Part shown: positions 16,578 through 52,391 of the stretch, one piece after another | Layout: the number at the start of each line of letters is the position of its first letter | Numbering within the stretch: the first letter of the stretch is position 1 | NCBI GenBank assembly: GCA_001790815.1 | Contig: MGDU01000018.1 | Coordinates: 788 to 64,787 of the forward strand | Direction: 5' to 3' | Length of the DNA: 64,000 bases | Source: Candidatus Uhrbacteria bacterium RIFCSPHIGHO2_02_FULL_46_47 | GTDB lineage: Bacteria > Patescibacteriota > Patescibacteriia > GWA2-47-26 | Translations under genes and position numbers: made by a program | The notes under the pieces: generated by a model | Told to the model about the DNA's origin: nothing | Databases searched by the model: none | The model's input: the letters and a program-made list of their open reading frames with translations, nothing else

Positions 16578-16931
16578 TAAAAAATACGGCACGAAGATAA
16601 GCAATCCCACAATCAGCGCACCAAGCGATGCGATGAGCACCGCGCCGGCCATCAAGTCTTTAATCTCCTGCACCATAGGATGAATACGCGGTTTAAATAC
16701 ATCCACAAACCGCTCTAAAATGCTATTTATCAACTCCAAAGTAAGCACTAAAATTATCAGCAGTAAAAGGGCAATCGCTTGCCACAAAGGAAGTTGAAAC
16801 CAAAATATCAACGCGACAATTACAAGCGCCGCCGCAACTTGAATGCGAAAACTTTGCTCGTATTTCCAGGCAATGACAATACCACGGGCGGCATAACGGA
16901 AACTTTGAAATAGACGACGTAGACTTAACAT
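16575..16931 (-). CDS. dgkA: diacylglycerol kinase / undecaprenol kinase (DgkA family)
   Basis: 118-aa three-TM protein with the DgkA pattern. Confidence 0.8.
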   Translation of the reverse strand: MLSLRRLFQSFRYAARGIVIAWKYEQSFRIQVAAALVIVALIFWFQLPLWQAIALLLLIILVLTLELINSILERFVDVFKPRIHPMVQEIKDLMAGAVLIASLGALIVGLLIFVPYFL

Positions 16932-17438
16932 AAATTCACCTAATTCATCTAATTCCTAATTCACCTAATAAAAATTAAAAGGAAAAATTCATAAATTATT
17001 GTTGAATACCCTTCCTGTTTTCCGTTTCTTTCGCTCGTTTAATGATAGTCATAAATATAAGATTAAGCTCGTGTGCTTCTTTCCAGAGTCTTCTCGCTTC
17101 AGAGGTGAATTCCGGACATGCTTTGGATACCATGCGCAGAAAATGCTTTGATTCTTTTGCTTCTTTATTGGCAATAGCCATTTTGTGGATGAAATCTTTA
17201 TTGCTTTCTGCACAATCCGCCTCACAGTAGTTTGCACCTATTGCCGTCGTACATCCTATCAACTGGGGGATAATACGTTTTGTAATCTCATCTTTGGGCA
17301 ATTGCCTGCAAAATACAATCGCATCTTCACCGAATTTAGCCGTTCTTTCTTCTAAATCATAGTGCTTTTTACTTTCCTCCTTTGGCATTTGGTATTTTAT
17401 TAGGTGAATTAGGTGAATTGTAATTTAGGTGAATTTTC
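16926..17438. mobile_element. hairpin-flanked cassette carrying a four-helix-bundle (23S rRNA IVS-type) protein gene. Inverted repeats aattcacctaattcatctaattcctaattcacctaat / ttaggtgaattaggtgaattgtaatttaggtgaatt
   Basis: IRs read directly; inserted between ybeY and dgkA. Confidence 0.6.
16996..17388 (-). CDS. four-helix-bundle protein (TIGR02436, 23S rRNA intervening-sequence protein family)
   Basis: …ERTAKFGEDAIVFCRQLPK…IGANYCEADCAESNKDFIHKMAIANKEAKESKHFL…. Confidence 0.85.
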   Translation of the reverse strand: MPKEESKKHYDLEERTAKFGEDAIVFCRQLPKDEITKRIIPQLIGCTTAIGANYCEADCAESNKDFIHKMAIANKEAKESKHFLRMVSKACPEFTSEARRLWKEAHELNLIFMTIIKRAKETENRKGIQQ

Positions 17439-17871
17439 TAAGCACTTTCTCTTCTACCTTTTCCATCTGCTTCGCTTCCTTCTCCTCCTCATGATCATAT
17501 CCTAGCAGATGCAAAAATCCGTGCAAGACAAGACGCGCGATTTCGTAGCGCATAATCCAGCCGTATTTTTTTGCCTCGCGTCTGGCCTCGGGGAAAGAAA
17601 TAAATATATCACCCAGATCCCCCCTCACCCTGCCCTCTCCCCCAGGGAGAGGGGTTGGGGTGAGGGTAGAAAACGACAACACATTCGTCGTCTTGTCTTT
17701 TCCTCTATACTTTTTATTTATTGCGCGCATTTTTTTATCGCCAATAAAACTAATGGATATGGCTACATTGCGCGGACATTGTATTATTTTTACGGCTTGA
17801 TTGACAATCTGTTTCACCGCGCTTTCATATCGCCTTGCCGCTGATACTTCATATCTAACAATGATTTTCAT
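17425..17871 (-). CDS. ybeY: rRNA maturation RNase YbeY with an in-frame GEGEG insertion
   Basis: HGFLHLLGYDHEEE metal motif. Confidence 0.9.
   Translation of the reverse strand: MKIIVRYEVSAARRYESAVKQIVNQAVKIIQCPRNVAISISFIGDKKMRAINKKYRGKDKTTNVLSFSTLTPTPLPGGEGRVRGDLGDIFISFPEARREAKKYGWIMRYEIARLVLHGFLHLLGYDHEEEKEAKQMEKVEEKVLRKFT
17619..17668. repeat. GEGEG element copy inside ybeY (encodes …PTPLPGGEGRVRG…)
   Basis: cccccctcaccctgccctctcccccagggagaggggttggggtgaggg. Confidence 0.8.
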
Positions 17872-17883
17872 GATTCATGATTC

Positions 17884-18798
17884 CTAATTCATAATTCTCA
17901 CACTATTGAGCATCATTTCAAATGTTCTCTTATACGCGCCCTCCACTGCTGTTCCATATAAAACTACGTAGATAAAGCCTTGTCCCGCAAACACACCTCT
18001 TAGCGTCGCGCCCTCTTTTGCGAAAATACCCGGCAGTCCGGCTTTATTGGTTGTCCAATCGGAAATTTCCGCGCTTTGAAAATTGGAAGCGGCATAAGCG
18101 CGAGCAGTGGTATTTTCCGGATTGTCAATAACGCTTACCAAAATAGATTCGCCCGTGGCGCTTTGAAAGATAACTTCACGGGAAGCTATATCGCCTGCGA
18201 TTGTCCAGGGTTTTGGATACAGAATTTCATAACGGTACGTTGAACTTATAAATCGCACAGCAAACCCAGCGGCTTCTAGACGCTCCGGCGCAATGCCTGA
18301 CGGATTATACAGGTTAAACACTTCATGGCCGTCCAAAAAACCATCGTTGTCAGTATCCGGAACTGAGGATTGGCTTCCGTACAAATTTTCTTCTAAATCC
18401 GAAAGGCCATCGCTGTCAGTATCTTGCGTAGCAGTTGGTTGCGCGGGCAGGGTTGGCGGTGCAACAGGGGGCAAAGCCGGAGGAAGTTCAGGAATTTCAG
18501 GAGCGGGCGGTGGCACTTCAACCGCAGGAGGCGTGGGAGTTACTTCTGGGGCAGGAGTAGGCACAGCGGGCGCTTCCCGCAGGCCGCGCGTAAAATACCA
18601 GACCGATCCGCCAACCACTGCCACAAATAAAATACTAACCGCGCTTATAAAAAGCACTTTCGGCGATATTTTGCGCGGCGTTTTTGTTGGTTTTCCCGGA
18701 ATCAAACCAATCTCAGGCGCCTCTTTGTGGGGCACCTTCTTTGGCACTGCCCCGCCATAGTAGGCATCGGGAATAGTGTGGATGATAGTATCCGGCAT
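17884..18798 (-). CDS. membrane-anchored, Pro-rich secreted protein with thrombospondin type-3-like Ca-binding repeats (DSDGLSD…DTDNDGFLDGHE)
   Basis: N-terminal TM; D-x-D-x-D-G repeats. Confidence 0.65.
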   Translation of the reverse strand: MPDTIIHTIPDAYYGGAVPKKVPHKEAPEIGLIPGKPTKTPRKISPKVLFISAVSILFVAVVGGSVWYFTRGLREAPAVPTPAPEVTPTPPAVEVPPPAPEIPELPPALPPVAPPTLPAQPTATQDTDSDGLSDLEENLYGSQSSVPDTDNDGFLDGHEVFNLYNPSGIAPERLEAAGFAVRFISSTYRYEILYPKPWTIAGDIASREVIFQSATGESILVSVIDNPENTTARAYAASNFQSAEISDWTTNKAGLPGIFAKEGATLRGVFAGQGFIYVVLYGTAVEGAYKRTFEMMLNSVRIMN

Positions 18799-18890
18799 AA
18801 TGACGAATGACTAAACCAGAATAACGAATGAATTTCCAATGACTAAATACCAAAATAACTCGTCATTAGTCATTCAGATTTCGGATTTCT

Positions 18891-19529
18891 TTACTGTCCC
18901 GCAGGGACAGTAAAGAGCTTCCCTTCTCCTTTCGGATTATATCCATTTCTTACTTCTTGCCCGTCAAGAAAATTATCTCCATCAGTATCTGCGTCTAAAG
19001 GATCCGTCTGATAGGTATTTACCTCTTCCCCATCCAAAAGACCATCATTGTCTGAATCCGGATTTTGCGGGTCAGTTCCGCGTGAAGTTTCATCTTCATC
19101 TGAAAGCCCGTCATTATCCGAATCTGCCGGCGGAGCAGGCGGTACTTCTTCCACAATAGTTTCTTCAGTTGGCGCAGTAGTAGCTTCGGGCAAAGTAGGA
19201 ATTTCCGGAGGAACTGGCTGTGATACTTCTGCTTGAGGCGGCGCTGGCGGCGCAGCACTGCGGCGCGCAAAACGAAGCACTGCCACTGCTATTCCGGCAA
19301 CAACAAGTATGCCAAGCACAATACCGCCAATTAAAATTGTTTTGCGCGAAGCAATAAGCGGCTGTTTTACTTCTGCCGGTGTTCCCTCACCCTCCCCGCG
19401 CCCTTTGGGAGAGGGTGCTCCGCCCGCAGGAGGAGCGGGTGAGGGAGCTGGCTCCACTTTTTCAAAAATATCTTCTGGCGCAGGGCCTGTGGGTAAATTA
19501 GGAGGCGTTTGTTCTTCAAACATTGGCAT
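18891..19529 (-). CDS. membrane-anchored protein with TSP3-like repeats and an in-frame GEGEG insertion
   Basis: DSDNDGLSDEDE…DSDNDGLLDGEE…DTDGDNFLDGQE. Confidence 0.65.
   Translation of the reverse strand: MPMFEEQTPPNLPTGPAPEDIFEKVEPAPSPAPPAGGAPSPKGRGEGEGTPAEVKQPLIASRKTILIGGIVLGILVVAGIAVAVLRFARRSAAPPAPPQAEVSQPVPPEIPTLPEATTAPTEETIVEEVPPAPPADSDNDGLSDEDETSRGTDPQNPDSDNDGLLDGEEVNTYQTDPLDADTDGDNFLDGQEVRNGYNPKGEGKLFTVPAGQ
19403..19465. repeat. GEGEG element copy inside the TSP3-repeat gene
   Basis: ccctcaccctccccgcgccctttgggagagggtgctccgcccgcaggaggagcgggtgaggg. Confidence 0.8.
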
Positions 19530-19697
19530 AAAGGTTATGAGTTATGAGTTATTGGTTATTAGCCATGTGTATAACAAAGTATACCATATTTATTGATATT
19601 GACACAATGTAAAATCGGCGCTATGGTGTAAAAGTGGTTCGGAAACCAAATCCCCCACCAGCCTAATGGCTTTCCTCTCCCTTAGGGAGGGGGTAGG

Positions 19698-21071
19698 GTG
19701 AGGGTCAACAAGGAGGAAGAGATGAAGACGTTCCTTTTCACGCTAGTGCTGGCATTCACGCTTGGCCTGACCATGTTCTCCTGCGGAAGCGGGGGCGGCA
19801 ACGGTAACGAAGGCGAGTCCGAAGCAGAAGCCGAAGCGGAAGGCGAAGAGGCCGAGGCTGAGTCTGAGTCCGAATCCGAGTGCGAACCTGAATCCTGCGA
19901 CGACGGCGTGGACTGCACAGATGATACCCTTGACGAAAAGGTGTGTGCCTGCGCATTCCAACCTCTCCACGGCCGTTGCGATCTCGGCATGATCTGCGAT
20001 CCTGCGGAAGGCGGCTGTGTCAGCCCGCCTCCCTGCGCCGTGGCGAGCGACTGTCCGGATCGCGATGGCGCTTGTTTGCAGGAATCCTGCAACACAGCCA
20101 CGGCGACCTGCGCATACTTGCCGCTGGACAGTGACGAGGACGGCCATTCGCCCCAAATCTGCACCTCGGTTGGCGGCGACGACTGCTACGATGATGCCAG
20201 CGAGATCTACCCCGGCGCTCCGGAGTTCTGCGACGGGCTGGACAACGACTGCGATGGAGAGGTGGACAGCTTCAGCCGTTCCTGCGGCTCCGACACCGGC
20301 GAGTGCGTTGCCGGGGAGCAGACCTGCGCAGACGGCGAGTGGTCGCAGTGCGATGATGTCGGCCCGGCCACCGAAGTCTGTGATGGGTTGGACAACGACT
20401 GCGATGGAGAAGTGGATGAGTTTCTCATCAACGATTGCAACGAATGCGGGCCGCTTCCGGAAGAAGTCTGCGACGGGGAGGACAATGATTGCGATGGAAC
20501 AACTGATGAAGGCCTGTTGAACGCGTGTGGGCAGTGCGGGCCTCTTCCGGAAGAAGTCTGCGACGGGGAGGACAATGACTGTGATGGAGAAGTAGACAAT
20601 GGTCTTCCAGAAATTGCTTGCGATGGGGAAGACGGCGATGAGTGTGAGGAAGGGTTTTGGCAGTGCGAAGATGGTGTGAGTTTCTGTGATGACCAAACCG
20701 GAAATACAATCGAATGGTGCAACAATAGTGTAGACAACGATTGTGATGGAGAAGTAGACGAGGGATGCGGTGATGCGTGTATCATGCCGCCATCCGCGTG
20801 TCCTTATGGCGGTTGGTGCGTCCCGGAGCCCGGGTGCCCCTACTGCGTCTGGACCTGCGCTACAGTTTCTGACTGTCCCGGAGGCGCCGCCTGCTATACT
20901 TGCGATTACTTTGGTGACGGGCTTTACCTCTGCAATCCCAAGTGGGACCCGGAGGCGAGTTGTCCCGCCGGTGAGATCGGGTACCCGCTTGGCGCGAGTT
21001 CGGAGTGCGATGGCGGCTTTGATCTATCCTTTTCAAGTGCACCTCTATGCACCATTGAGTGCACTCCGTAA
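19698..21071 (+). CDS. secreted/lipoprotein-like Cys-rich protein with MopE-type 'putative metal-binding motif' repeats (CDGxDNDCDGxxDE); GC-rich with a strong SD
   Basis: Signal peptide; at least 6 CDG.DNDCDG repeats; SD aaggagga. Confidence 0.75.
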   Translation: MRVNKEEEMKTFLFTLVLAFTLGLTMFSCGSGGGNGNEGESEAEAEAEGEEAEAESESESECEPESCDDGVDCTDDTLDEKVCACAFQPLHGRCDLGMICDPAEGGCVSPPPCAVASDCPDRDGACLQESCNTATATCAYLPLDSDEDGHSPQICTSVGGDDCYDDASEIYPGAPEFCDGLDNDCDGEVDSFSRSCGSDTGECVAGEQTCADGEWSQCDDVGPATEVCDGLDNDCDGEVDEFLINDCNECGPLPEEVCDGEDNDCDGTTDEGLLNACGQCGPLPEEVCDGEDNDCDGEVDNGLPEIACDGEDGDECEEGFWQCEDGVSFCDDQTGNTIEWCNNSVDNDCDGEVDEGCGDACIMPPSACPYGGWCVPEPGCPYCVWTCATVSDCPGGAACYTCDYFGDGLYLCNPKWDPEASCPAGEIGYPLGASSECDGGFDLSFSSAPLCTIECTP

Positions 21072-21096
21072 ATTAGAAGAAAATACAACGGCCGAG

Positions 21097-33500: not shown

Positions 33501-35603
33501 AACATCGGCCAATACTGCAACTCCACTGGTGGGATGCACAAAATAAACACTGCCGCACGGGGCACCGTTTGGCGCGCAAAGATCACCAAAATTATTTCCT
33601 AAAATTGAGATTCCCGTACCTACTCCTCCGGAAGGCGGGGTAATGCTTAAAATTTCCGGAAGTGTTCCTTTAAGCGGGGAAAGAACTTCATAAGGCAGGG
33701 CGTTTGAAGCAATGCCTTCCGTGTTCAACACCTGCACTCCAAAAGTTTCATAGTCAATCGGGATAACCGCGGTTTGCGCGCTAGTATCAGTCCAGTTGGC
33801 AACCCCTGCTCCGCCAAGTCCGCCAAACAAAACTGCACCAGGAGTTGCCCCAAACTGCGCGCCTCTAAGGGCAACCGCAGTTCCCCATCCGCCCCTGGCT
33901 TGATCCGCCGGAGGAGATTTTACTGAACACAGACCCGGACGCGCCGTATTATTTACCTCAAACGAGCCGTCTGCGACAATTGATCCTTGCGGAGGCGGAT
34001 GAAGCGGCACCACAGGTCCGCGCGTGTCATCTGTGGAGTCGCGGCAAAGTGAATCGTTTGCCGCGCACCCGGCAGTGGCAAGAGTAATTGGCCCGGTTAC
34101 CGCGCTCTCAGGCAAGCCAGGCAAGCCAACCAGCACAGAATTATCTGTCCAGGTATTTTCTCCAGCGCAGGCCTGTGGAGCAGAAGCCACCTTATCATCT
34201 TCCGGCGCGGAAGTGCCTTTAAATACCACGGTTCCGGCTTGGGATCCAAAACTATATCCGGCCAGCGCCACAAATGTGCCTGGCCGTCCATCACCCGGGG
34301 ACACGCCGGTAATTTTGGTGGGTTCAGCGCATATGCCATTGATGCAAGCTCCGCCGGAGCACTGAATATTTTGAGTGCAGGACGCTCCATTGCAAAGCCC
34401 GCATCCTGAAGGACCATTCACTTGACTGTCGCAATCCACCTGATCTTCATCATCATCTTTAATATCATTGAAACAGTGCAAAGGCCGCACCATTACCGCC
34501 ACTGGTGCTGACAGCGTATTATTATCATCCACATCATACGCCCTGGCCGTGAGCCGACGCGCTTTGGGAGCTGGAGGCGGCGGATACCAGCAAGGAATTT
34601 CCAGCACAGTATCAGTAGGGGTTGTGTCATTGGAAGGCATGATGCTCCCACCCGTTATCAATTGTCCATCCATGTAAAATTTGACCAACGAAACTCCGCC
34701 ATCATCAGTCACTTTTGCCTGCACTCGCACACACGTACCAACTGCCACTGGCTCGCCTTCATCCGGATATTCCAGGGTTACAGTTGGTGGCGCTACATCA
34801 ACCAAAGATCCGCTATGAAAAGCGCCAGTGCATGAGGGCGCGAGCCCGCCGCAAATCAGTTTTTTGCCGTCAGCGCTTAACAGTTTTTCTTTGGCTTCTA
34901 CAGTAAAGTCAGTTTCGGCGTCAAAACACTTGCGATCAGTGTTTGGCGCCGGACATGCCGTGCGCGGCCGCAGTTCAATAGTATAGTCATTTACAATTGG
35001 ATCCGTTTCCACCAGCACTCCTTCATCTCCATCACTTGCTTTGCGGCGCACTTCTATAGTTGAACGTATATTTTCAAGGTCGCCAGTTGGTTTTTTGCTC
35101 AAAGTTACGCGCACTACAATATTGCGTATCGTGCTTGCGCCGCGCGGCGTAATTCCTTTGACAATAAAAGCGTCTTTTGGCAAACCTTCGGGACAATCCG
35201 GGCCAAGACAAGGAGTAGCAATTATGACTTCCCTCGGACCGCGCGTTGCTTCAATCAGTTTATTGATAACAAATTGTGTAATGGCAAATGAGGTTAAGAT
35301 AATAATCAACCCGATAATGGCATTGCGCAGAACTTTTTTTGCTTTTTCAATTGTTTCTTCATTGCCAGCCGCGGTCATCCACAAAAATCCACCGTAGATA
35401 ATTAGCGTTAGCACGACAATGCCAAGAAAACCGAGCGCCACTCGAATAATCCGCGCCGCAATCAGACGCGGGTCAGCCGCCGTCAAAGCCAGCCCCTCCA
35501 CTTCGGCAGAAACCTGAGCAAAACTTGTATATGCTAAAAGCAAGCCCAGTAGTGTAGCTGCGCTTATTATCCAACCTCTCAATTTTTTCATGAGTTTTGC
35601 CAT
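21576..35603 (-). CDS. giant (4675 aa) cell-surface protein. Signal peptide plus TrbC/VirB2-like two-helix N-terminal anchor, IPT/TIG-like domains, and at least 15 'Myxococcus cysteine-rich repeat' units (CGNG..E.GEECDDGN…DGCS..C)
   Basis: Single 14-kb ORF; repeats read from the translation. Confidence 0.9.
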   Translation of the reverse strand: MAKLMKKLRGWIISAATLLGLLLAYTSFAQVSAEVEGLALTAADPRLIAARIIRVALGFLGIVVLTLIIYGGFLWMTAAGNEETIEKAKKVLRNAIIGLIIILTSFAITQFVINKLIEATRGPREVIIATPCLGPDCPEGLPKDAFIVKGITPRGASTIRNIVVRVTLSKKPTGDLENIRSTIEVRRKASDGDEGVLVETDPIVNDYTIELRPRTACPAPNTDRKCFDAETDFTVEAKEKLLSADGKKLICGGLAPSCTGAFHSGSLVDVAPPTVTLEYPDEGEPVAVGTCVRVQAKVTDDGGVSLVKFYMDGQLITGGSIMPSNDTTPTDTVLEIPCWYPPPPAPKARRLTARAYDVDDNNTLSAPVAVMVRPLHCFNDIKDDDEDQVDCDSQVNGPSGCGLCNGASCTQNIQCSGGACINGICAEPTKITGVSPGDGRPGTFVALAGYSFGSQAGTVVFKGTSAPEDDKVASAPQACAGENTWTDNSVLVGLPGLPESAVTGPITLATAGCAANDSLCRDSTDDTRGPVVPLHPPPQGSIVADGSFEVNNTARPGLCSVKSPPADQARGGWGTAVALRGAQFGATPGAVLFGGLGGAGVANWTDTSAQTAVIPIDYETFGVQVLNTEGIASNALPYEVLSPLKGTLPEILSITPPSGGVGTGISILGNNFGDLCAPNGAPCGSVYFVHPTSGVAVLADVNFPSQCGTTWWTPHVITVKVPQGLSIGTIYNVQVYRYDQQSAGKDFEVTNTTPGPFLACIRPTGGPLTSRVSVYGENFGNSVIADRGLFFTRKDSPDPPVAFDPVTGARSASWVSARATPTNIGGVPNDTCPLSGWSGNKACAALPNDPSATPPNVARTGAVIVEQDIDDVTRYSNPLLFTVGSCRAPVGPLYLNCGSSLICCLDGSCNSPCPTFVTPVSAYGWQFSTSPKPLVPEVIAQCDTFEDGGIDHPEFPPSPSPAAQSGRNKDVNVCVNAAVAVTFNTPVLPATLNATNIKLQKCTGTQELLTGNDSSFAGTTAKWAHPPHPTDVVAQLENQVLDAVLAPGEGRNPNDTDTYALHLTKLDDDTGPGWANETGIQQNYEHWFGYQANAIENTNGKTYTATAWVRAGNAAAFGKRAGILIQRDGSALAANTPNAWQKASQETMLTESWRQVSVSLTFDAHTAPGFVRVFMEGAPYDLREGTKTQANDAATIAQYSDPAQLFAMYVDDVQVTGDPCTAVEANTVDANLIDEYPGDIGFRYYSSSDFDPNTWYRVTLIGGASGIKAQDIGVRQGQGMEVLKDAPARCGDASAAYCFRFKTKNEPNAQDNLCKVGGIAVVPKKYTARAENEMIEYSAVPVAAGDPCVIPKPGSYAWAWQSTDTAKATVSYNPGASPPHIGHACATDADCSIGALPACVSGYCTQMGWTTTATAIAETELDQQTGKPIPVHIQATTENKTGQGDLTVEFEPPRVISYWPSCADGVCTNAGMGAQFSKAMVNNSGNTAAVTNKANVQVWSVPCGNGALDPGEDCDDGNIISGDGCSSACVHEGSNFALRCGDGNIDLFEDCDDNNLTNGDGCSDKCLNEGTNTPICGNSTVGIGEDCDDGNRQDGDGCSSKCLHEGTRSDIPICGNKRLDRGEECEKQADETFAPWCSSTTCLRQGPQPAALCGNGRVDAGEECDDNMPLLDSVAKKALCADAGTQYPCQWTGTLRPASPVGQGCGNRKIEIGEDCDDGNLQPGDGCDGACRNEGSSPGTIPACGNGGTADAGEDCDDGNTVSGDGCSSKCLNEGRPSATCGNGGKPEIGEDCDDRNTTNNDGCSSICANEGTAAPVCGNGALDNGEDCDDKNVANGDGCSNVCKNEGRPAESVNSNDLILTWDTNTNAVSIDAGMLNPNTNYRVLLRGADNPATTVQVEGLHGLASGGALGKTLSNLNFIYNWEVSGAPHEEGVRCSLLPSAPVDERCNTFSWTFKTKDLPCGVDRVEVNPAQASLYVIGARQPYSSQPYGPPDSCSPQGQKLNQFIYNWSWDTQDQVIATIVNQPGVNTIPSCGDGISEQGEDCDDGNTFADDGCDEFCLNEGSDFEFACGEGDDPDVVEECEKTSLEYETPWCSNNCLHRGSTPCPLGATTNCCGNEIVESGEDCDDGNNLASDGCSPICLNEGTSRATGQCGNGTVDHPQNNPELGGEECDPNETTGIRKYFCNPETCLLRGTLPQPKCGNGIIETGEECDEASKDCGGHPVRQPCAIGNVGDGCSADCLHEGSPRTCGNGKLDKGEDCDDGNAASGDSCSSACLNEGTKAEAGPVSPATLPETPPRRDPFQQARAEGIKKFCRSDTTPDFQETVGGQLVSCTSNTNCTTAGFGICAPTNPWSTTDVQATAGGKTGASPLTVYCVAKTDKDCPVPNGSASPTIGRGSDNCCYNRPTVTARTPTIGEVCRNALIRATFSQPMDQESLSGNFILARQYEDKCPAGTAEVRDNGQIISPNILRNSSFEQETPLAWTLEKDQTANAADNISRRELSSADQIAGTYAISAEMVETDVLAIEQDKAPPDGPSVTATQTVTLPANTSYTLSAKVRVISMGTVTESPIGIGLYKERTGADPYLRFARGPLTQTSGWVNVSGTFTTVEAGEYVVFVAIVGGETEALFDQVELRKVVITQAKSTHIFARAWRWIVELFKRLTPSARAQNPVWCVESDIELTTTAAQNGQAVILQPSKMLGDKDDPVTYRVGIAGDKFTATGEVVKGGLRSQAGVGFNGGAFGLDMSWEFTTGKDICTLDEVEVIVVPPDTAALTATAQTADVEATAYTSATRTATQSHERQPIYPVPGYSWAWSWGSSELETVTATNRTEQRCGGKPYGATTGCSATNPLSPVTLPEQTVTAGTKDGTAQVNATATITEDFVRPESIIQPGICREISGALKCANNSSRTCVTDQDCGEQAGQTRVGFAEFSLFRCDNPWPADATTTYYLIDNEEYGTAPVIDAHILGTERPLNFRTHYCRDGATLLPELSYPPPVLIPLITGLFPKPKNAYYIASSHDNPAPQTLKEILLTAKSFTQGVSVPNGVRQPANDIRENNGSFPDYTFNFPEPGDYEIAVETSNYDHNNDPKDDDLSNLAAVLEAKNIPDAVRAALRNRSDDVKELTGAYYHRIQISLDGAVKGFVVNQAGSETKRNDGRLILRGVSKGDHAVKLTWTNEDETWTNEDKLPSAQLIVDGTTYAEGSIWDPNLKIHKVTLRRGRVKDDAIGIRVLSNPERLPLAAWYNRMGFGGTPSPTPAPIDGYQALQEGNTIYIAATNATTDTTTSPPTKKVFDNVYLISLSEGAPANLKVVFDELIENLKFNVNLENLKTCEKNFCANNPTQDCEDNNDDDCETDGVDGLCVQKSCVKDLDCATGETVVCRSDREKLARDIIRIQQVTAMQAALAGYKARTGRYPTLEAGTFIRSLSTSKWPSWNATFGSALGAPLPQDPIDRFGAPCVSGPTEKGTYNPATCWNEQMQKYICPKGSHIYQYQSLGGVGYKLSSAFELVEKVENETMAWDVYGWDPSTGEQEVDTSGGCEVEAAGTTWSNATAVCGNRIIELPESGNLIIEPPEICELGTENTAVVNFAPGGEKRCTGNPSVTCPTLAENTPCPLDGDGNSQGLCQKLTSCTARRECKSDCSNWNDWPGGTVDAADCSPGGTFCGNGLREDIDLNNDGDTNDSGEHEVCDDGLLNGNYGKCNATCTGLAAHCGDGIKTGAEVCDRQTYNFATETFSTAGTAAAPSTACVNGDYGCCKFDCGGPAQHCGDTFVNGTEQCELGNTGRSAGRCRIVSSGALTATPCTSNAQCDPGQTCAICGPAGTLGGLTTTLTIQQKQPEEDVALDTFEIFLDGSSIGIGTAGYQDEPKTFTLPLGTHSVIIKYKNGYNQGHYQLVWGSGVSFRRTPIIHTSAGATGGSSLYGPAAGTADDYTVGRLHMPQALPVGTILFGHCSISTTLCARDADCPLAGETCTGRSATNGCQLPNGDNGTTAWCARTHSTDPGYIQYDISVSTTSAPTFIGGYSTAFERTCTSGCTWGASGGWSSSCVQTGERCGDGTTNGTEQCDDGQQNTADANNNSTPDGDEDGCLNNCTRAQCGDGKNQIKVCTTGTDAQKGRPCTTNEQCGTGGVCQDPEDCDLGAQNGVPCTPQYGGNCTYCDNQCNAITRTGGFCGNTIYEPPSEQCEGTQGLSYTAGIVGAPKYVCKGTVGTNEYFGNFATVADVDAWVEGNAVAVRHTPGYNSTYTMRIDPSANAGEVRYRFPDTDGKTYVASAWVNTDQTTGSQGVRLIMDREGAPNDTEYKYPPDSSPNSYFQLDHDPNTWQYIELTAAYDAGPNRAYDGWLRIRVENYDDDIHVDQVRLRPGPPTCTANNCTQACRGGSFCQNKLKQCSGGNNPTANCTEPSTVCTGGTCTENNFDRENILQGSVSYKSQPTSAVTNLSSGQYAGDRVSDTCDNDQDNDNYPASTDCNDNNAKVNPDATELCNNAVDEDCNSATDCVAVTLQVSDYSDSNDTFCVYLDDQLIDFAYGGNAKQTSVTSLLPGQYDLEILFHHSDGFIHTHTTTLAGGLVVSIPHQHSPNGDHSGTYRFQKSSNISFVSPNWILHRSSGSSLSTQTGTAANNVHTGTLHDEARKADAVETGSKTAVCSDSNGTIYKGLDDAGSVTYKINVTP

Positions 35604-35605
35604 TG

Positions 35606-35685
35606 CTATATTGCTATATTGCTATATTGTTTCCGTACCTTCCATATAACAATATAACAGTATAACAATTTAACAATATCTCTAG
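35606..35685. repeat. intergenic hairpin of tandem 'gctatatt' units (gctatattgctatattgctatattg … caatataacagtataacaatttaacaatat)
   Basis: Read directly. Confidence 0.65.
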
Positions 35686-40431: not shown

Positions 40432-40465
40432 ACTCGATTCTCATTCATAATTCATAATTCTTAAT

Positions 40466-44345: not shown

Positions 44346-44375
44346 TATGTAGTAAGTAGTGGGGTAGTATGTAGC

Positions 44376-45473: not shown

Positions 45474-45727
45474 GATCTTCCTCCTCCCATGCGGGCAGTG
45501 GCGGTACCACGGCGGCTTGAAACTATGCCGCCCCAATACCGGTAAACCCGCACACGAGTTTTCAATGTGCCGCGCAGATGATGGCGGATTGCCTTCACCC
45601 GAGCACATCTTTACCCTACTGCCTGTTTTACACAATGTCAATGGTACGCCAGTCGGTCTTTAGCCGGAGATTATTTTATGATACAATCCTTTACCCGGAG
45701 GGTCGGGTCGTTGTGTCCGGTGACCAA

Positions 45728-45950: not shown

Positions 45951-45964
45951 GGCAGGTACATCTC

Positions 45965-46772: not shown

Positions 46773-46977
46773 CGGACCCTCCTTGGGGTTGCGGTTGTGC
46801 CGCACCCTTGGAAGGTTCCCGCTGATGCTACTTCACCTCATGCGAGTGCGACGGTTTCTTCGCAAATAAACCGTCACTTCTGACTCTTCATGTTGTCCCT
46901 CCTTTCTTAGGACTAATGTGGATAGTAACACAAAATCGACGCTTTGTCAATAGTTTGGTAAAATACTCAATATCACA

Positions 46978-47012: not shown

Positions 47013-47025
47013 TGGCATCATATTT

Positions 47026-47616
47026 ATGAAACTCATCATCGGCCTGGGCAACCCGGGAAAAGAATATGAAAAAACCCGACATAATGTTGGGTTTCTTGCG
47101 GTTGAAAAAATCGCGCAGGATTTACAATTTTCTAAATGGAAAATGGAGAAAAAATTGGAAGCCGAGGTGTGCCGCGGTTTTATTGCATCTTGCTGTGAAG
47201 ATGTAATCCTTGCCAAACCCCAAACCTTCATGAACCTCTCCGGCCGCGCAGTCCAACTACTTACTACGTACTACAAACTACATACGAATGACGTGCTCAT
47301 CGTCCACGACGATTTGGATTTAGAGCTTGGCACGCTTAAACTATCCTACGGTTCAGGTAGCGCAGGACATAACGGTGTGCAATCAATTATTGATACGCTA
47401 GGCACTAAAGATTTCTGGCGCCTGCGCATGGGCATTGGCCGCCCACCACAAGTTCGGGAGGGTTATGATGACGCGGCAAAATTTGTCCTGCACAATTTCT
47501 CCCGCACCGAAAACCCCAAACTCAAAAAATCCCTTGACCTTGCCGCGCAAGCCGTTCAAAAAATGTTTACCCTCGGCCCGGCCAAAGCCCAGACGGAAAT
47601 TAATTCCCTCTCTTAA
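47026..47616 (+). CDS. pth: peptidyl-tRNA hydrolase
   Basis: MKLIIGLGNPGKEYEKTRHNVGF…. Confidence 0.95.
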   Translation: MKLIIGLGNPGKEYEKTRHNVGFLAVEKIAQDLQFSKWKMEKKLEAEVCRGFIASCCEDVILAKPQTFMNLSGRAVQLLTTYYKLHTNDVLIVHDDLDLELGTLKLSYGSGSAGHNGVQSIIDTLGTKDFWRLRMGIGRPPQVREGYDDAAKFVLHNFSRTENPKLKKSLDLAAQAVQKMFTLGPAKAQTEINSLS

Positions 47617-47700
47617 GATAAGAGAGGGCGGGGTGAGTTATGAACGGTTCATAACCCCTCCTCCCTCCCCTTATCTTAAGGGGAGGAAATTGTGCTATAA
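47606..47700. repeat. three consecutive palindromes downstream of pth: ccctctcttaagataagagaggg, gggtgagttatgaacggttcataacccc, and ccccttatcttaagggg
   Basis: Read directly; related to the element at 44396..44490. Confidence 0.7.
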
Positions 47701-47925
47701 TGAATATTTCTTGACGAGCCTGGTCCCTGCATTTGCAGGATCTATCAAAAATCCGCCTCGCGGGGGCGGATTTTTGTTTGAAATTACATACTAACCAAAC
47801 GGCTCAATATTTTGCGATCGCAAATAGTTGAGTCGTGGGGATTTAGGTTTTATAAAATAAAAAAAGAGCGGCGCCAGGGGGTTTCCAGCGCCGGCCCCGC
47901 ACCATGATGCGGGGACTTTTGTACA

Positions 47926-48143: not shown

Positions 48144-48307
48144 TCACCTCCTTTCGTGGTGGATTCTTCCTTGCCGACCACGCAGGAAAGTTGACCCAAA
48201 GCAGGGATGGAGACATTTTGTTTGTACCATGTTTTTGGCAATTTGTCAAGGGGTGGGGTATAATGGCCCAAAGTTGCGCAAGGCGATAATTTATTTTGCG
48301 TAGCGCG

Positions 48308-48425
48308 GCACTTTATGTGCCGCTTAAGCGGGAGATAAACTCCCGCGCTACATTGCGCAGGCTAAAGACCTGCGACTACCTTCAAGCTACATTGCGCAGG
48401 CTAAAGACCTGCGACTACCTTCAAG
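48308..48425. repeat. dprA leader with two hairpins followed by a perfect tandem duplication of a 39-nt unit (gctacattgcgcaggctaaagacctgcgactaccttcaa x2), each unit containing a hairpin
   Basis: Read directly. Confidence 0.7.
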
Positions 48426-48434
48426 TAGAAAAAT

Positions 48435-49667
48435 ATGGAAAACGAAAAAATTTACTACCAAGCGCTGGCGAGGTTTGATAAAATCGGGCCGTTGCGGTTG
48501 CGGACGCTTTTGAAAAGTTTCACATCCGTGGAGCAGATTTGGCACGCCTCGGCCCAAGACCTTACCCGCTCTGGATTGGATGAAAATGTTGCGACGGAAT
48601 TTGTGTCCTGGCGCAAAGACCAGGATATTGAAAAGCAGTGGGAAGAGTTGCAGAAAGAAGGGATACAGGTGGTGACGTGGGGGGATGCTCCCCCTCACCT
48701 GGCCTCCGGCCATCCTCTCCCTCAGGGAGAGGGACGGGGTGAGGGAAAATATCCATCACTCCTTGCTGAGATTCATGATCCGCCGCATACATTGTTTGTG
48801 AGAACAGCACACCCCCTCCTAACCTCCCCCATCAAGAGGGAGGGACAAATTGGTAGTTCCCCTCCCCTGGTGGGAGGGGTTAGGGGAGGGGAAATTTTTG
48901 ACAACACCTTCACCCTTGCGGTGGTGGGGACGCGCATGGCTACTACTTATGGCCGACAAATTGTAGAGCAGATTGTTGGGCCGCTGGCGCGCTCAGGACT
49001 AACTATTGTTTCCGGACTGGCCCTGGGAGTTGACGCGCTGGCACATGATGTAACTGTACGCGAAGGTGGAACTACCATTGCCGTGCTTGGCGGCGGGTGC
49101 GATCGCGCTTCAATTTATCCTACGAGCAACCGCGCCTTAGCCGAGAGGATCATTGAAAAAGGTGGCGCAGTAATTTCTGAATATCCGCCAGGTACTTTAG
49201 CCATGCCATTTCATTTCCCGCATCGCAATCGCATTATCTCCGGCATGAGCCGCGGTACTTTTGTTATTGAGGCCACTGAAGATTCTGGTTCGCTCATTAC
49301 CGCAAAGCACGCGCTTGAGCAAAACCGCGAAGTGTTTACAGTGCCCGGCGATATTACCCGCGATACATCGCGCGGGCCAAACAATCTTTTGAAAATGGGC
49401 GCGCACCCGGTACTTTGCGCTGATGATATTTTGGACGCGCTGAATTTGCAAGATTTAAAAGCCACAATTGAAGCGCGAAAAATCATGCCGGATGATCCAA
49501 CTGAAGAGAAGATTTTGGCGCACTTGGGAGATGAGCCAGTGCACATTGACGAGCTTGTGGAAAAGACACAAATGCAAGCTGGCGAAACTGCTTCATGCTT
49601 GACACTTATGGAAATGAAAGGTAAAGTCCGGCATATTGGAGGAATGAACTATGTGCTCGCGCACTGA
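48435..49667 (+). CDS. dprA: DNA processing protein DprA (Rossmann-like plus C-terminal wHTH) with two in-frame GEGEG-family insertions
   Basis: …LTIVSGLALGVDALAHD…GGGTIAVLGGG…. Confidence 0.9.
   Translation: MENEKIYYQALARFDKIGPLRLRTLLKSFTSVEQIWHASAQDLTRSGLDENVATEFVSWRKDQDIEKQWEELQKEGIQVVTWGDAPPHLASGHPLPQGEGRGEGKYPSLLAEIHDPPHTLFVRTAHPLLTSPIKREGQIGSSPPLVGGVRGGEIFDNTFTLAVVGTRMATTYGRQIVEQIVGPLARSGLTIVSGLALGVDALAHDVTVREGGTTIAVLGGGCDRASIYPTSNRALAERIIEKGGAVISEYPPGTLAMPFHFPHRNRIISGMSRGTFVIEATEDSGSLITAKHALEQNREVFTVPGDITRDTSRGPNNLLKMGAHPVLCADDILDALNLQDLKATIEARKIMPDDPTEEKILAHLGDEPVHIDELVEKTQMQAGETASCLTLMEMKGKVRHIGGMNYVLAH
48691..48894. repeat. two GEGEG-family element copies inside dprA (48691..48747 and the variant 48812..48894)
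   Basis: cctccggccatcctctccctcagggagagggacggggtgaggg; cccctcctaacctccccc…gggaggggttaggggagggg. Confidence 0.8.
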
Positions 49668-49669
49668 TA

Positions 49670-49783
49670 TGATACGAATCAGCGAATATCTGACGAATCT
49701 ACCAATATACGAATTGAGTAAGGATTTCGTAGATTCGCATATTCGTTGATTCGCTATAAGATTTGTAGATTCGTATCATAATA
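49670..49783. repeat. long hairpin 'atgatacgaatc…gattcgtatcat' abutting the topA start codon
   Basis: Same family as 16488..16577. Confidence 0.7.
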
Positions 49784-51969
49784 TGAAGCTCATCATTGTT
49801 GAATCCCCTACTAAAGCCAAGACGCTCTCCAAATTCCTCGGGAGTGATTTTGTTGTTAAATCCTCCTTTGGCCATATTCGTGATTTGCCTAAAAGCAATA
49901 AAGACGCGGTGGATATTGCCGGCGGTTTTGTGCCGCGCTATCAGATCTTGAAAGAGAAACAAAAAGTCATTGCGGAATTACGCGAAGCCGCGGAAAAGGC
50001 GGACGAAGTCATTTTGTCCCCTGATCCTGATCGCGAAGGTGAAGCAATTGCCTGGCATTTGGCGCAGGTCATTGGCCTTAAAAACCCCAAGCGCAGTGTT
50101 TTCCATGAAATAACGCAGCGTGCTGTGGCGGAGGCGCTGGCGCATCCGCGCGAGATTGATAATCAACTGGTGCGCGCTCAAGAAGCCCGCCGGGTTTTGG
50201 ATCGCCTGTTTGGCTATGATCTTTCCGGTTTAATTTGGAAAAAAGTTCGCTATGGCTTGTCAGCTGGACGCGTGCAATCCCCAGCACTGCGCATACTTAT
50301 GGAGCGCGAGCGCGAAATTCGAGCGTTTGTGCCGGAAAAATTCTGGGTCATAAGCGCGAACCTTAAAACAAAGTCTGGCGGAGCCTTTACCGCCACTTGC
50401 GTAGAAGAACCAAAAACCGAACCAGAAGCCAAAAAGATATTAACGGCGGCGCAAACCGGAACATGGTTTGTCAAAGATATTGAAGAATCAGAGCAGTCCC
50501 GCGCGGCGCGTCCACCCTTTACCACCTCTACTTTACAACAAACTGCCAGCACCCGTTTGGGATTTTCTCCATCACGCACCATGCGTATAGCGCAAAAACT
50601 GTACGAAGCCGGACACATTACCTACATGCGCACCGACAGCGTACATCTGGCGCAGGAAGCACAAGCGAATTTTATCGCGGTGATTAAAAAAGAGTTTGGT
50701 GAAAATTACGCCGAGCCGCGTGAGTACAAAACCAAAAGCAAATCCGCGCAAGAAGCGCACGAGGCAATTCGACCAACTGACGCAGCTGTGCGCGCCTGCG
50801 GCGCGAATGAAGAAGAGAAAAAATTATACGTGCTTATTCGTGCGCGGGCGCTGGCCAGTCAAATGTCTGACGCGCGCATTGCCCGCACCAAAATCATTGC
50901 TAACATCTCCAACAGTTCCCTTCCTGATTTTGCCGTAAATGGTTCGCGCGTGGTGTTTGAAGGATGGCTTAAGGCTGACCCGTCTGCCCGCGGTGAAGAT
51001 GTTGAACTTCCCAAAACCGCAAAGAACGATCCGCTCACACTTATGGAGGCGGCCTTTGAAGGCAAGGAAACCCAACCGCCCGGACGCTATAGTGAAGCCG
51101 GATTGGTTAAGGAGCTGGAGAAGCGTGATATTGGACGGCCGTCTACCTATGCCTCCATTATCAAAACCCTGGAGGACCGCGGCTATGTGGAAAAACAAAA
51201 TCGCACACTCATGCCCACTGCGACCGGAGACGTGGTCAGCTCATTTATTGAAGAAAATTTTGGCGACTACATTTCCGATACTTTTACCGCGGAAATGGAA
51301 AATGAGCTGGACGAAATTGCCGAGGGTAAACGCACCTATGAAGGGACGCTCACGGAATTTTACGAGCCCTTTCACAAAGCTGTCAAAGGGAAAAGCGGAG
51401 TAGCCAAAATTACCGAAATGGGAGCGGCGCCAAAAGAATTTCCCTGCCCGATTTGCGGCAAGGCCATGGTGTATAAACTTTCGCGCACCGGCCGTTTTAT
51501 GAGTTGCGTTGATTTTCCAAAATGCCTTGGCGCGCGCAAAGAAGACGGCAGTGTTATCGCGCCACCCAAAGAAATTGGAGAAACCTGCCCGGAATGTAGC
51601 CGCCTGCCTGCCGGTAGGCAGGGCCAATTGATTGAACGTGAAGGACGGTTCGGCCGATTTATCGCGTGCAGTAATTATCCAAAATGCAAATTTATTAAAA
51701 AAGGTGAGGCGGAGGAAGCCAAAGGAAAAACCGGCGTGCAATGCCCGATATGCAAGAAGGGAGAGATGGTTGAGCGGCGCGGCAAATTCGGCGTTTTTTA
51801 TTCCTGCTCCAATTATCCAGATTGCAAAAATGCTATCAAAGCGCGGCCGACCGGACGACTTTGTAATTTGTGCGGCGCCCTATATATGCTCGGTACCAAA
51901 ACAATTCCGGAGCGCTGTTCAAACAAAGACTGCCCAAATCACAATCCGCATAAATTGAAAGCGAATTAG
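49783..51969 (+). CDS. topA: DNA topoisomerase I with C-terminal zinc ribbons
   Basis: TOPRIM MKLIIVESPTKAK…, multiple CxxC ribbons. Confidence 0.97.
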   Translation: MKLIIVESPTKAKTLSKFLGSDFVVKSSFGHIRDLPKSNKDAVDIAGGFVPRYQILKEKQKVIAELREAAEKADEVILSPDPDREGEAIAWHLAQVIGLKNPKRSVFHEITQRAVAEALAHPREIDNQLVRAQEARRVLDRLFGYDLSGLIWKKVRYGLSAGRVQSPALRILMEREREIRAFVPEKFWVISANLKTKSGGAFTATCVEEPKTEPEAKKILTAAQTGTWFVKDIEESEQSRAARPPFTTSTLQQTASTRLGFSPSRTMRIAQKLYEAGHITYMRTDSVHLAQEAQANFIAVIKKEFGENYAEPREYKTKSKSAQEAHEAIRPTDAAVRACGANEEEKKLYVLIRARALASQMSDARIARTKIIANISNSSLPDFAVNGSRVVFEGWLKADPSARGEDVELPKTAKNDPLTLMEAAFEGKETQPPGRYSEAGLVKELEKRDIGRPSTYASIIKTLEDRGYVEKQNRTLMPTATGDVVSSFIEENFGDYISDTFTAEMENELDEIAEGKRTYEGTLTEFYEPFHKAVKGKSGVAKITEMGAAPKEFPCPICGKAMVYKLSRTGRFMSCVDFPKCLGARKEDGSVIAPPKEIGETCPECSRLPAGRQGQLIEREGRFGRFIACSNYPKCKFIKKGEAEEAKGKTGVQCPICKKGEMVERRGKFGVFYSCSNYPDCKNAIKARPTGRLCNLCGALYMLGTKTIPERCSNKDCPNHNPHKLKAN

Positions 51970-52391
51970 CGGATTAGAGATTAGCGAATTAGCTTATGGC
52001 TCACACATTTTATGAACTTAACATTTGGAAAAAGGGGCATGAACTTCTTATAGAAGTATACAAAGTAACGGCCAAATATCCACCTACTGAAAAGTACGGC
52101 CTTAGTAATGATACTAGGCGTTCTGGCAACTCTATCATTGCAAATATCGCGGAAGCGCACGGTAGATATTTTTTTGCCGATAAAGTGCGCGTCCTTTATA
52201 TTGCCCGCGGGGAAGTGGAAGAAATACGGAGTCATTTGAGAGTTGCGGAAAGTCTTAGTTATATTTCAAATGAAAAATTCCAGTGGTTTGATCAAGAATA
52301 TGAGGGTCTCGCAAAAGGCATAAGTAGCTACATTGCTAGCCTGGAACAACAATCCCAAAATCAACACGACTAATTCGCTCAATTCGCTAAT
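51961..52391. mobile_element. second hairpin-flanked cassette carrying a four-helix-bundle protein gene (IRs gcgaattagcggattagagattagcgaattagc / taattcgctcaattcgctaattagc); the left IR overlaps the last codons of topA
   Basis: Read directly. Confidence 0.6.
51996..52373 (+). CDS. four-helix-bundle protein (23S rRNA IVS protein family)
   Basis: …GHELLIEVYKVTAKYPPTEKYGLSNDTRRSGNSIIANIAEAHGRYFFADKVRVLYIARGEVEE…. Confidence 0.85.
   Translation: MAHTFYELNIWKKGHELLIEVYKVTAKYPPTEKYGLSNDTRRSGNSIIANIAEAHGRYFFADKVRVLYIARGEVEEIRSHLRVAESLSYISNEKFQWFDQEYEGLAKGISSYIASLEQQSQNQHD

Follow-up and report, generated by a model that had tools for sequence, protein, structure and literature searches.

In Coxiella burnetii the 23S rRNA carries an intervening sequence (IVS) with a 28-bp terminal stem and an S23p open reading frame (ORF), which is excised by RNase III and has been described as a selfish element (PMC4990558). 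The sporadic distribution of 23S rRNA IVSs suggests horizontal transfer, and ORF-bearing as well as ORF-less forms exist (PMC4990558). ORFs of the 23S_rRNA_IVP type were also found in rRNA insertions of bacteria of the Candidate Phyla Radiation (CPR) (PMC11270868). Here we characterize two genes for four-helix-bundle (4HB) proteins of the same family, hb1 and hb2, which lie within protein-coding operons of Candidatus Uhrbacteria bacterium RIFCSPHIGHO2_02_FULL_46_47, a member of the CPR. They are located in a stretch of 64,000 nucleotides of contig MGDU01000018.1, in the following called the window, and each is enclosed by two inverted arrays of short tandem units (arms). Gene and arms together are referred to as cassette 1 (hb1) and cassette 2 (hb2). 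To our knowledge, the S23p/IVS family has had no function assigned to it since ORF-bearing 23S rRNA IVSs were described in the early 1990s. Among small ‘hypothetical’ families it ranks with the most numerous ones of CPR bacteria, cyanobacteria and Bacteroidota.

Arrays of short units have been reported from several other bacteria. In Geobacter metallireducens, paired inverted octa-, nona- and heptanucleotide arrays (24, 21 and 8 pairs) were read as sites of global regulators (PMC2700814), and in Xanthomonas 70-75 pairs of convergent GGGAATC arrays were read as G-quadruplex sequences (PMC4692102). The STRR heptamers of cyanobacteria and the TAACTGA repeats of Beggiatoaceae are intergenic direct repeats near start codons and are regarded as regulatory candidates (PMC4679880). 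Tandem heptamers at bacterial gene junctions have in this way been catalogued repeatedly without explanation. If gene and arrays form one conserved unit, both puzzles, the function of the S23p proteins and the heptamer repeats, become concrete experiments. We found no publication that links genes for 4HB or GxxExxY proteins (see below) to flanking tandem arrays, or that describes such a cassette outside rRNA, most subscription journals lying outside the search.

About 170 related loci, in which several phyla are represented, were compared with the window in all; gene calls in these loci are crude ORF maps. Using FtsA as query against one genome per species we obtained 80 loci, 65 of which have ybeY and dgkA upstream of ftsA. 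A metagenome scan for homologues of hb2 yielded 80 loci with 72 genes for which both flanks were available. Arrays were called with Tandem Repeats Finder. The two cassettes and their junctions comprise the following features:

16996..17388, minus strand: hb1, encoding a 130-aa 4HB protein (TIGR02436/PF05635, pI 8.6)
17399..17436, minus strand: upstream (5') arm of cassette 1, some four 9-nt units in tandem (AATTCACCT when the minus strand is read)
16932..16995, minus strand: downstream part of cassette 1, an AT-rich spacer (about 25 nt) and, behind it, the 3' arm of ATTAGGTGA units (16932-16973)
51996..52373, plus strand: hb2, encoding a 125-aa 4HB protein (TIGR02436/PF05635) with a weak, sub-threshold Avd match
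51960..51995, plus strand: upstream (5') arm of cassette 2, 4.4 tandem 8-nt AGCGAATT units, ending at the hb2 start codon
52370..52404, plus strand: downstream (3') arm of cassette 2, 3.6 tandem 8-nt CTAATTCG units, overlapping the hb2 stop codon
51950..51961, plus strand: left copy of a candidate target-site duplication, ATAAATTGAAAG
52406..52417, plus strand: right copy of the candidate duplication, TTAAATACAAAG, 9/12 identical to the left copy

The arrays of cassette 1 (16933-16969 and 17399-17435; period 9, 4.3 copies, AATTCACCT / ATTAGGTGA) are mutually reverse-complementary over 28 nt at 82%, 21 nt at 95% and 19 nt at 100%. On either side they reach into the neighbouring genes, YbeY (17425-17871, PF02130, 1.6e-39) and DgkA (16575-16931, PF01219, 1.7e-30), or directly up to them: The last three codons and the stop of ybeY (17425-17436, ...AAA TTC ACC TAA) lie in the first unit of the upstream arm, and the start codon of dgkA (16929-16931) is found 1 nt past the last unit of the 3' arm. 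For cassette 2 the arrays at 51960-51993 and 52370-52399 have a period of 8 with 4.4 and 3.6 copies and are reverse-complementary over 16 nt at 88% and 15 nt at 93%. A preceding sequence-only reading of the window had noted that the left repeat of this cassette overlaps the last three codons of topA (49783-51969, TIGR01051, 703 bits). This is correct: The array, which extends from 51960 onward, covers these codons as well as the stop (51960-51969, ...AAA GCG AAT TAG).

The same reading had held that cassette 1 separates two normally contiguous genes, and had proposed to look for empty sites in related genomes at both loci. Over the 65 related species the gap between ybeY and dgkA has a median of -4 nt, and in 60 of them it is at most 20 nt, such that the two genes are indeed normally contiguous. 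A 4HB gene between them was found in a single one of the 65, a sister Uhrbacteria species (L015) with an 81% identical FtsA. This copy is armed as well, with AATTNACCT-type units; a copy of the gene at this locus that lacks inverted repeats, which had been named as the observation that would speak against a cassette, was not encountered. Between the two arm pairs one compensatory change is seen (AATTCACCTAA/TTAGGTGAATT in the window, AATTGACCTAA/TTAGGTCAATT in L015). As hb1 and the L015 copy at the same site are only 56% identical, replacement or independent arrival is indicated rather than simple vertical descent.

For cassette 2, the order pth-dprA-topA...relA is conserved in three close relatives, whose TopA is 82-83% identical, and none of the three has a 4HB gene after topA. 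In one of them (L182) the empty site reads CATAAATTAAAAG directly followed by ACGGCCGG, and it is exactly this point that cassette 2 occupies in the window. The candidate 12-nt duplication sits exactly at the junctions of cassette 2 as defined by this empty site, and its right copy directly precedes a non-coding element (52418-52480) that is present after topA in 4/4 species compared. Judged by these genome comparisons, both cassettes are insertions.

The element after topA is an observation in its own right. It is found at 52418-52480 in the window and at 5318-5385 in L181, 5173-5235 in L182 and 5053-5115 in L183. Its sequence (GACGGCCGGACaGGCTAACCCCTAAAACC..GTAATAAGAGGGCGC..GCCGgCCG) forms a stem around conserved loops and is followed by a second GTAATAAGAGG module and then by a terminator-like hairpin. 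This conserved non-coding element may be an undescribed small RNA or leader. Rfam at gathering threshold gave no match over the element or the cassette arms; its matches in the window are one tmRNA and three tRNAs.

The sequence-only reading had further claimed that the genes travel as cassettes. The homologues of hb1, 6049 in number, bear this out. The closest ones (75-80% identical) are found in four unrelated contexts (L174, L176, L177 and L179), i.e. after an SLT-like gene, after a gene for a TraG-like ATPase, between genes for a glycosyltransferase and an LPG synthase, and beside a DUF2341 protein gene. In all four, the 5' arm has the form AAATTCACCTAAATTACAATTCAYCTAATTCACCTAATAAAAT..CAA immediately 5' of the ATG, and on the 3' side TTTTATTAGGTGAATTAG...GGTGAATT comes after roughly 25 nt of AT-rich spacer, which is longer in L176. 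The spacing is constant with 36-47 nt upstream and, where a co-directional gene follows, 64-68 nt downstream. Arms and ORF thus occur nearly unchanged in unrelated neighbourhoods.

How strongly the arms are conserved becomes apparent from a comparison with the coding sequence. Between the window and the four loci, identity amounts to 80-96% in the 5' arm but to only about 50% at third codon positions. For L174 in particular, 47/49 positions of the 5' arm and 85% of the 3' flank are identical to the window at 51% identity of third codon positions; with pS 0.85 and pN 0.13 synonymous sites are saturated between hb1 and this homologue. Arms that remain 80-96% identical while synonymous sites are saturated must be under constraint at the level of the sequence and not merely of the structure. 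The gene is constrained, too: Against its close homologues hb1 shows pN 0.13-0.15 versus pS 0.83-0.85, which is indicative of strong purifying selection.

For hb2 we quantified the association of gene and arms by an inverted-repeat score of the flanks, taking scores of at least 30 as positive and 256 other genes of the same loci as controls. Positive flanks were found for 71% of the 72 hb2-like genes (median score 35) compared to 0.8% of the controls (median 15.5), many of the metagenome loci being orthologous copies of a single insertion. The presence of arrays on both sides according to Tandem Repeats Finder was dropped as a control statistic, since many control genes adjoin cassettes and share an arm. 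Of the earlier description of the brackets as inverted repeats of tandem 7-8-nt units, the reverse-complementary arrangement therefore holds far beyond chance, while the units of the two cassettes measure 8-9 nt. The flanks of hb2 homologues are almost always tandem arrays, with period 8 in 84/115 and with 2 to 12.9 copies. Their upstream units are related (GTGAATTA / GATTAGAG / GATTAAGC), with the complements downstream, and the unit family GAATTAGNG / GATTAAGC flanks most of them.

The hb2-like loci display 47 distinct combinations of neighbouring genes, which amount to about 30 or more contexts that are independent of each other. Approximately 35 loci share one context (acyl-CoA dehydrogenase and HAD hydrolase), and the rest is spread over more than 30 others, among them ribosomal protein L5, smpB/pabB, glmU and AmmeMemoRadiSam genes. 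In more than 15 distinct neighbourhoods, genes of the hb2 type go together with arms of the hb2 type (ATTAG / ATTAAG units). The 4HB gene shares the direction of the upstream gene in 68/70 and that of the downstream gene in 60/69 cases, compared to a background of 0.73 for adjacent genes. Median gaps of 48 nt upstream and 38 nt downstream leave room for little beyond the arms.

The same arrangement of 4HB gene and arrays is present on plasmids of cultured cyanobacteria. On a plasmid of Picosynechococcus PCC 7003 (L195) the gene lies between cmr2 and cmr3 with (GGAGATA)/(TATCTCC) arms, in Geminocystis it lies between parA and parB, and the Nostoc punctiforme gene has (CAGGAGT)n/(ACTCCTG)n arms. 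As read from the sequences compared, the inherited and recurring unit is the 4HB gene together with its arms. Such cassettes split conserved operons (ybeY-dgkA, cmr2-cmr3, cas6-cas4) and supply upstream stop codons, and annotation should treat them as inserts. Many homologues are found on contigs of 0.5-2 kb, which would fit assembly breaks induced by the repeats.

Both proteins score above the cut-offs of their families (24 bits for TIGR02436, 33.8 bits for PF05635), in line with the assignment made from the sequence alone: hb1 reaches 60.8 bits with TIGR02436 and 40.9 bits (E=2.6e-10) with PF05635, and hb2 reaches 100.6 and 104.8 bits (E=3.5e-30). The two are 16% identical to each other. Across both subfamilies Glu53, Glu73, Glu76 and Leu81 are invariant and His80 is nearly so. 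The closest PDB entries by sequence are 2RLD (Bacteroides BT_0352, E=4e-9) for hb1 and 2GSC (Xanthomonas XCC0516, E=1e-12) for hb2, each of which contains five chains. An AlphaFold2 model of hb2 has four helices (pLDDT 94.8), and Foldseek superposes it on 2GSC with a TM score of 0.85 and on 2RLD with 0.77, followed by Avd (4DWL) and the cryo-EM structures of the ribonucleoprotein of a diversity-generating retroelement (DGR; 8UBE), both with 0.74. In DGRs, Avd binds structured RNA. The Avd family models remain below threshold on hb2 (NF033474, 32.9 bits at a cut-off of 80; PF22296, 30.2 bits at a cut-off of 40), and hb1 gave no Avd signal. Neither protein had a match in the PADLOC library of anti-phage defence systems.

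When folded as RNA, both cassettes are closed by a stem between their arms in the minimum-free-energy as well as the centroid structure (z = -3.5 for cassette 1 and -2.0 for cassette 2 against shuffled sequences). Consensus scans detected neither a promoter-like site in the arm upstream of hb1 or hb2 nor an intrinsic terminator in the arms; in the case of a CPR organism such a negative carries little weight.

Array pairs are not restricted to these two genes. The 64 kb of the window hold about 8 inverted array pairs, including both cassettes and a pair within the pyruvate kinase gene, compared to about 10 from an automated scan, and 1 more found by reading, in 1.16 Mb of the relatives (80 loci). 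At least six further array hairpins of the window are ORF-less, such that heptamer and octamer arrays are not peculiar to hb1 and hb2; the cassette arms are part of a larger population of array hairpins without ORF that extends through the genome. The following array features were recorded:

49671..49777, plus strand: ORF-less array hairpin between dprA and topA, (TACGAAT)n / (ATTCGTA)n arms, 9-nt loop
16480..16570, minus strand: ORF-less array hairpin between dgkA and ftsA, ATACGAATC / GATTCGT units
1614..1670, minus strand: ORF-less array hairpin between rpmI and rplT, GAGTTAT / ATAACTC family, 7-nt loop
42798..42893, plus strand: ORF-less array hairpin between a LytR-family gene and der, GAGTTAT family
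35602..35679, minus strand: ORF-less array hairpin between two large surface-protein genes, ATTGCTAT / ATATAACA, 30-nt arms that are 83% complementary
5786..5885, minus strand: array hairpin in frame within the pyruvate kinase gene, GAGTTAT family
17867-17897, 19534-19552 and 40443-40474: single arrays at gene junctions

ORF-less hairpins also occupy the site of cassette 1 in other species. Between ybeY and dgkA they were found in L014 (about 63-150), L019 (6488-6559), L028 (6563-6613), L031 (2459-2570) and L039 (6537-6603), with the unrelated units CCACTAG, AAAGGGGACACTTCT, TTAGTCA, CAGTTAT and AGGTTGT; the units of L031 are (CAGTTAT)n. They account for the enlarged spacers of L031, L019 and L028, the exception being L066 with a spacer of 34 nt and no evident array. 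Hairpins at this junction in about 9% of the species, compared to about 1% of junctions overall, mark it as a hot spot.

A second kind of cargo was found at the dprA/topA junction. The sister genome L181, which is the genome of L015, carries a gene of the GxxExxY family (TIGR04256, PDDEXK_3, PD-(D/E)XK fold) at 2557-2967 between (TACGAAT)n and (ATTCGTA)n arms. In the more distant relatives L182 and L183 dprA and topA abut, with neither hairpin nor GxxExxY gene. Since this junction is armed with a gene in L181 and gene-less in the window, the ORF-less hairpins are either decayed cassettes or landing pads. Another array-bracketed GxxExxY gene is located in L174 (4475-4957); the units around such genes are heptamers or octamers. 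A jackhmmer search of the compared loci returned no GxxExxY genes beyond those of L181 and L174. At least two protein families, 4HB and GxxExxY, use the same vehicle.

In the pyruvate kinase gene (4665-6110, minus strand) the (GAGTTAT)n / (ATAACTC)n arms are in frame and encode GELGVRSYELRV and NSILITHNSITHNF, and the 24-nt ‘loop’ between them encodes the conserved QKIIFTTG. A simple insert does not describe this case: Relative to the nearest homologue (68% identical), host codons are replaced by the same number of unrelated ones on the left, and nine codons are added on the right. A distant inverted pair with 2.9 kb between its arrays, (GTAGTAT)n at 44342-44374 and (ACTACAT)n at 47256-47285, was considered and not treated as a cassette. 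Its second array falls within codons 77-87 of pth. Between the two arrays lie two ORFs (44727-45641 and 45969-46805) without a family match, which L182 and L183 do not have between der and pth.

The loci of hb1 and hb2 are probably copies of a widespread small insertion cassette of the 23S rRNA IVS type that resides in protein-coding operons. Such a cassette would have a size of about 0.45-0.55 kb and comprise one 4HB gene of the S23p/Avd type, without a promoter-like site of its own, between two arrays in inverted orientation, each made of 2-13 tandem copies of a 7-9-nt unit (8 nt in most). Oriented like the host gene, it would land in the short interval that separates the stop codon of this gene from the gene or element that begins next, whereupon its outer repeat units would supply the last codons and the stop of the upstream gene and abut the downstream start codon. 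Expression would presumably occur by read-through of the host operon. In the transcript or in single-stranded DNA (ssDNA) the arms could pair to a stem of about 30-40 bp with internal bulges, with the ORF looped out. By analogy with the IVSs of Coxiella and Leptospira the arms may be processed by RNase III, which would let an essential operon tolerate the insert. Conservation of the arms far beyond that of synonymous sites argues for their sequence-specific recognition, and the most plausible partner would be the cassette's own, putatively pentameric nucleic-acid-binding protein, in analogy to Avd with structured RNA. Movement would be rare; the cassette would probably recombine with array-hairpin sites or insert into them, and the ORF-less hairpins found at junctions of these kinds would represent decayed copies or landing pads.

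Several observations weigh against this picture, in particular against its RNA-level and mobility parts. If stems were selected in the sense RNA, arm mismatches should carry a signature of it, but in 56 cassettes we counted 71 G:U versus 66 A:C mismatches (p=0.73) besides 166 others. The sense duplex is the more stable one in 49/69 cassettes, though control genes have the same bias (-28.7 versus -26.1 kcal/mol), which makes this comparison uninformative. With strand-symmetric mismatches and uninformative strand energies, a role of the arms at the DNA level (ssDNA hairpin, cruciform or homology arms) is equally possible. GxxExxY genes have the same kind of arms, such that arm recognition by the 4HB protein itself is not required, and the pyruvate kinase arms flank host coding sequence, such that pre-existing DNA, too, can be surrounded by array pairs that arise or are copied around it. 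At the ybeY/dgkA site a target duplication cannot be discerned because the arm ends in the palindrome AATT. The cas6/cas4 copy of Pseudanabaena galeata pPg_01 (L194) has direct rather than inverted arrays, (AAAGCTA)x15 and (AAAGCCA)x10, and one Calothrix copy has no arrays at all. Neither cassette contains a recombinase, transposase or reverse transcriptase (RT), nor was one seen nearby in a non-exhaustive listing. Finally, identical contigs are present in Rifle groundwater assemblies: The 11 and 10 contigs compared are identical over the cassettes, with no polymorphism of presence or of array length, and 24/24 contigs per neighbouring gene carry the cassette. Being fixed and invariant in their source population, the cassettes have not been mobile recently here.

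Among the alternatives, a non-autonomous DNA transposon similar to a mobile insertion cassette or a miniature inverted-repeat transposable element (MITE) survives best, though we consider it unlikely. The arrays would then be terminal inverted repeats with several binding sites for an enzyme encoded elsewhere, e.g. of the hairpin-targeting IS110 type, and the 4HB gene a mere passenger. The terminal inverted arms delimit the element sharply, a candidate duplication exists at the topA site, GxxExxY genes provide a second cargo with similar arms, and in G. metallireducens IS110 and IS481 elements keep a constant spacing to paired octamer arrays (PMC2700814). A transposase is, however, absent from the families listed for the window (a Pfam survey of its 42 other proteins, 25/70 families listed), the ybeY/dgkA site shows no duplication, and several copies of one cassette within a genome were not seen. 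A gene that is under strong purifying selection and tracks the arm type also fits a functional partner better than a passenger.

It is quite improbable that the hairpins formed in situ, by slippage and fold-back template switching at AT-rich junctions, and were possibly kept as sites of RNA processing, pausing or protein binding, with the 4HB genes inside them by chance. Such an origin accounts for the pyruvate kinase case and for hairpins without ORF: At least six of the latter, and several single arrays, are present in the window, hairpins with unrelated units are found at ybeY/dgkA in L014, L019, L028, L031 and L039, and the pyruvate kinase pair surrounds conserved host coding sequence. Strand-symmetric arm mismatches and fixation of the cassettes in the population agree with it, as do the many paired arrays without cargo that have been described for Geobacter and Xanthomonas (PMC2700814, PMC4692102). 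It does not account for the conservation of arms and ORF across contexts. The same arm sequence and spacing with the same ORF lineage in five unrelated contexts, hb2-type arms that track hb2-type genes through more than 15 neighbourhoods, and the 71% versus 0.8% of the flank test contradict it for both cassettes.

We give very little credit to retro-mobility, i.e. to a transcript that is bracketed by the arms, bound by the Avd-like protein and copied by a DGR or group II intron-type RT acting in trans, with hairpins or cruciforms as the targets at which the cDNA is installed. CPR bacteria commonly carry DGRs, the hb2 model is a predicted structural homologue of Avd (TM 0.74 to 4DWL and 8UBE), and the 68/70 co-orientation with host transcription is strict. 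Yet no RT is among the families listed for the window, the repeat scan revealed neither template nor variable repeat, that is no long direct repeat pair near hb1 or hb2, the Avd score of hb2 stays below its cut-off (32.9 versus 80 bits), and hb1 gave no Avd signal. That the genes are orphan DGR accessory genes or fragments of a defence system next to unrelated repeats is scarcely credible and already contradicted: the weak Avd match of hb2 and cyanobacterial copies inside CRISPR-Cas operons would suit it, whereas PADLOC finds no match, dozens of contexts have ordinary housekeeping neighbours, the arms are conserved with the gene, and within CRISPR-Cas operons the gene is an insert between cmr2 and cmr3 or cas6 and cas4 with arrays of its own.

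The window contains further repeats besides the arrays. A GC-rich palindromic element of about 45 nt (CCCTCACCC...CCCCCAGGGAGAGGGG...GGGTGAGGG) is dispersed over it and lies in frame in several genes. It was found in ybeY (17620-17665), in dprA (48435-49667) and in the ORF 18891-19529, as well as at 19674-19704, 7270-7352, 8334-8367, 10998-11019, 42381-42416 and 47604-47688. Among the corresponding peptide inserts are TPTPLPGGEGRVRG in YbeY and GHPLPQGEGRGEG in DprA. Upstream of dprA, a perfect 39-nt tandem duplication of 2.0 copies (48347-48425) is located beside palindromes at 48300-48351. On the minus strand, 21576-35603 is a single ORF of 4675 aa with weak or faint Pfam matches to Big_5, Big_7, CBM_4_9, DUF4215 and Cu-binding_MopE, a giant surface protein of the kind that CPR bacteria typically have.

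How does the proposed cassette compare with elements that have been described before? Mobile insertion cassettes, MITEs and Rickettsia palindromic elements all have terminal inverted repeats around a passenger or around nothing. Unlike in these elements, the arms described here are tandem arrays, the target duplication is uncertain, and we know of no cognate transposase. The in-frame palindromic elements of Rickettsia resemble the pyruvate kinase case, though in the pyruvate kinase gene the arms flank host coding sequence. In REPIN-RAYT systems a single gene, the Y1 transposase RAYT, is flanked by inverted repeats and accompanied by many ORF-less intergenic hairpins, and within a genome the REPINs have the flanking sequence of their RAYT gene in common. 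In contrast, the flanked gene here is a 4HB gene, for whose product we know of no catalytic activity, the arms are tandem, and the ORF-less hairpins of the window have mostly other units (GAGTTAT, TACGAAT, ATTGCTAT). An integron gene cassette was rejected in view of arms on both sides, solitary inserts in housekeeping operons and no adjacent integrase.

The arrays of Geobacter and Xanthomonas come close to the arms in having 3-5 tandem 7-9-nt units on opposite strands at gene junctions (nifD/nifK, proB/proA, 3' of topA). Further common features are a variable distance within a pair and a position that is conserved between species. They were not linked to 4HB or GxxExxY genes; the cargo in Geobacter, where present, is IS110 or IS481. 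A likeness to the STRR and TAACTGA repeats lies in the heptamers of the Nostoc 4HB arms and in the (CAGTTAT)n array of L031, which is the complement of TAACTGA, while those repeats have not been described as inverted pairs that enclose a gene. Avd (bAvd; 4DWL, 8UBE) has the same predicted fold as hb2 (TM 0.74). Unlike in Avd systems, no RT, template or variable repeat was seen here, the Avd model is sub-threshold, and the genes stand solitary among housekeeping genes.

The 23S rRNA IVSs of Leptospira and Coxiella share with the cassettes the protein family (PF05635/TIGR02436), the single small ORF, the terminal complementary stem, a sporadic distribution and the existence of forms with and without an ORF. 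They sit in helix 25 or 45, whereas both cassettes lie between protein-coding genes, for which reason the cassettes do not belong to the rRNA IVS class proper. Furthermore, the cassette arms are tandem 8-9-nt arrays with outer units that double as stop or start context of the neighbouring genes, and they have no RNA-strand signature. From the resemblance to the IVS that the sequence-only reading had put forward, the topology and the protein family are thus retained, and the part at the RNA level finds no support in the G:U test. A wider proposal, which at present we would rather bet against, is that array-armed cassettes form a hitherto unrecognised superfamily of tiny mobile elements across phyla, with arms of tandem 7-9-nt repeats that would be recognised in a sequence-specific manner by their own product, either an Avd-like pentamer or, in a sister class, a GxxExxY PD-(D/E)XK nuclease. 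Heptamer and octamer arrays, paired or single, at junctions and even within genes, among them the STRR, Beggiatoa TAACTGA and Xanthomonas GGGAATC repeats and the ‘global regulator sites’ of Geobacter, would then be its ORF-less derivatives, and the 23S rRNA IVS its rRNA-resident branch.

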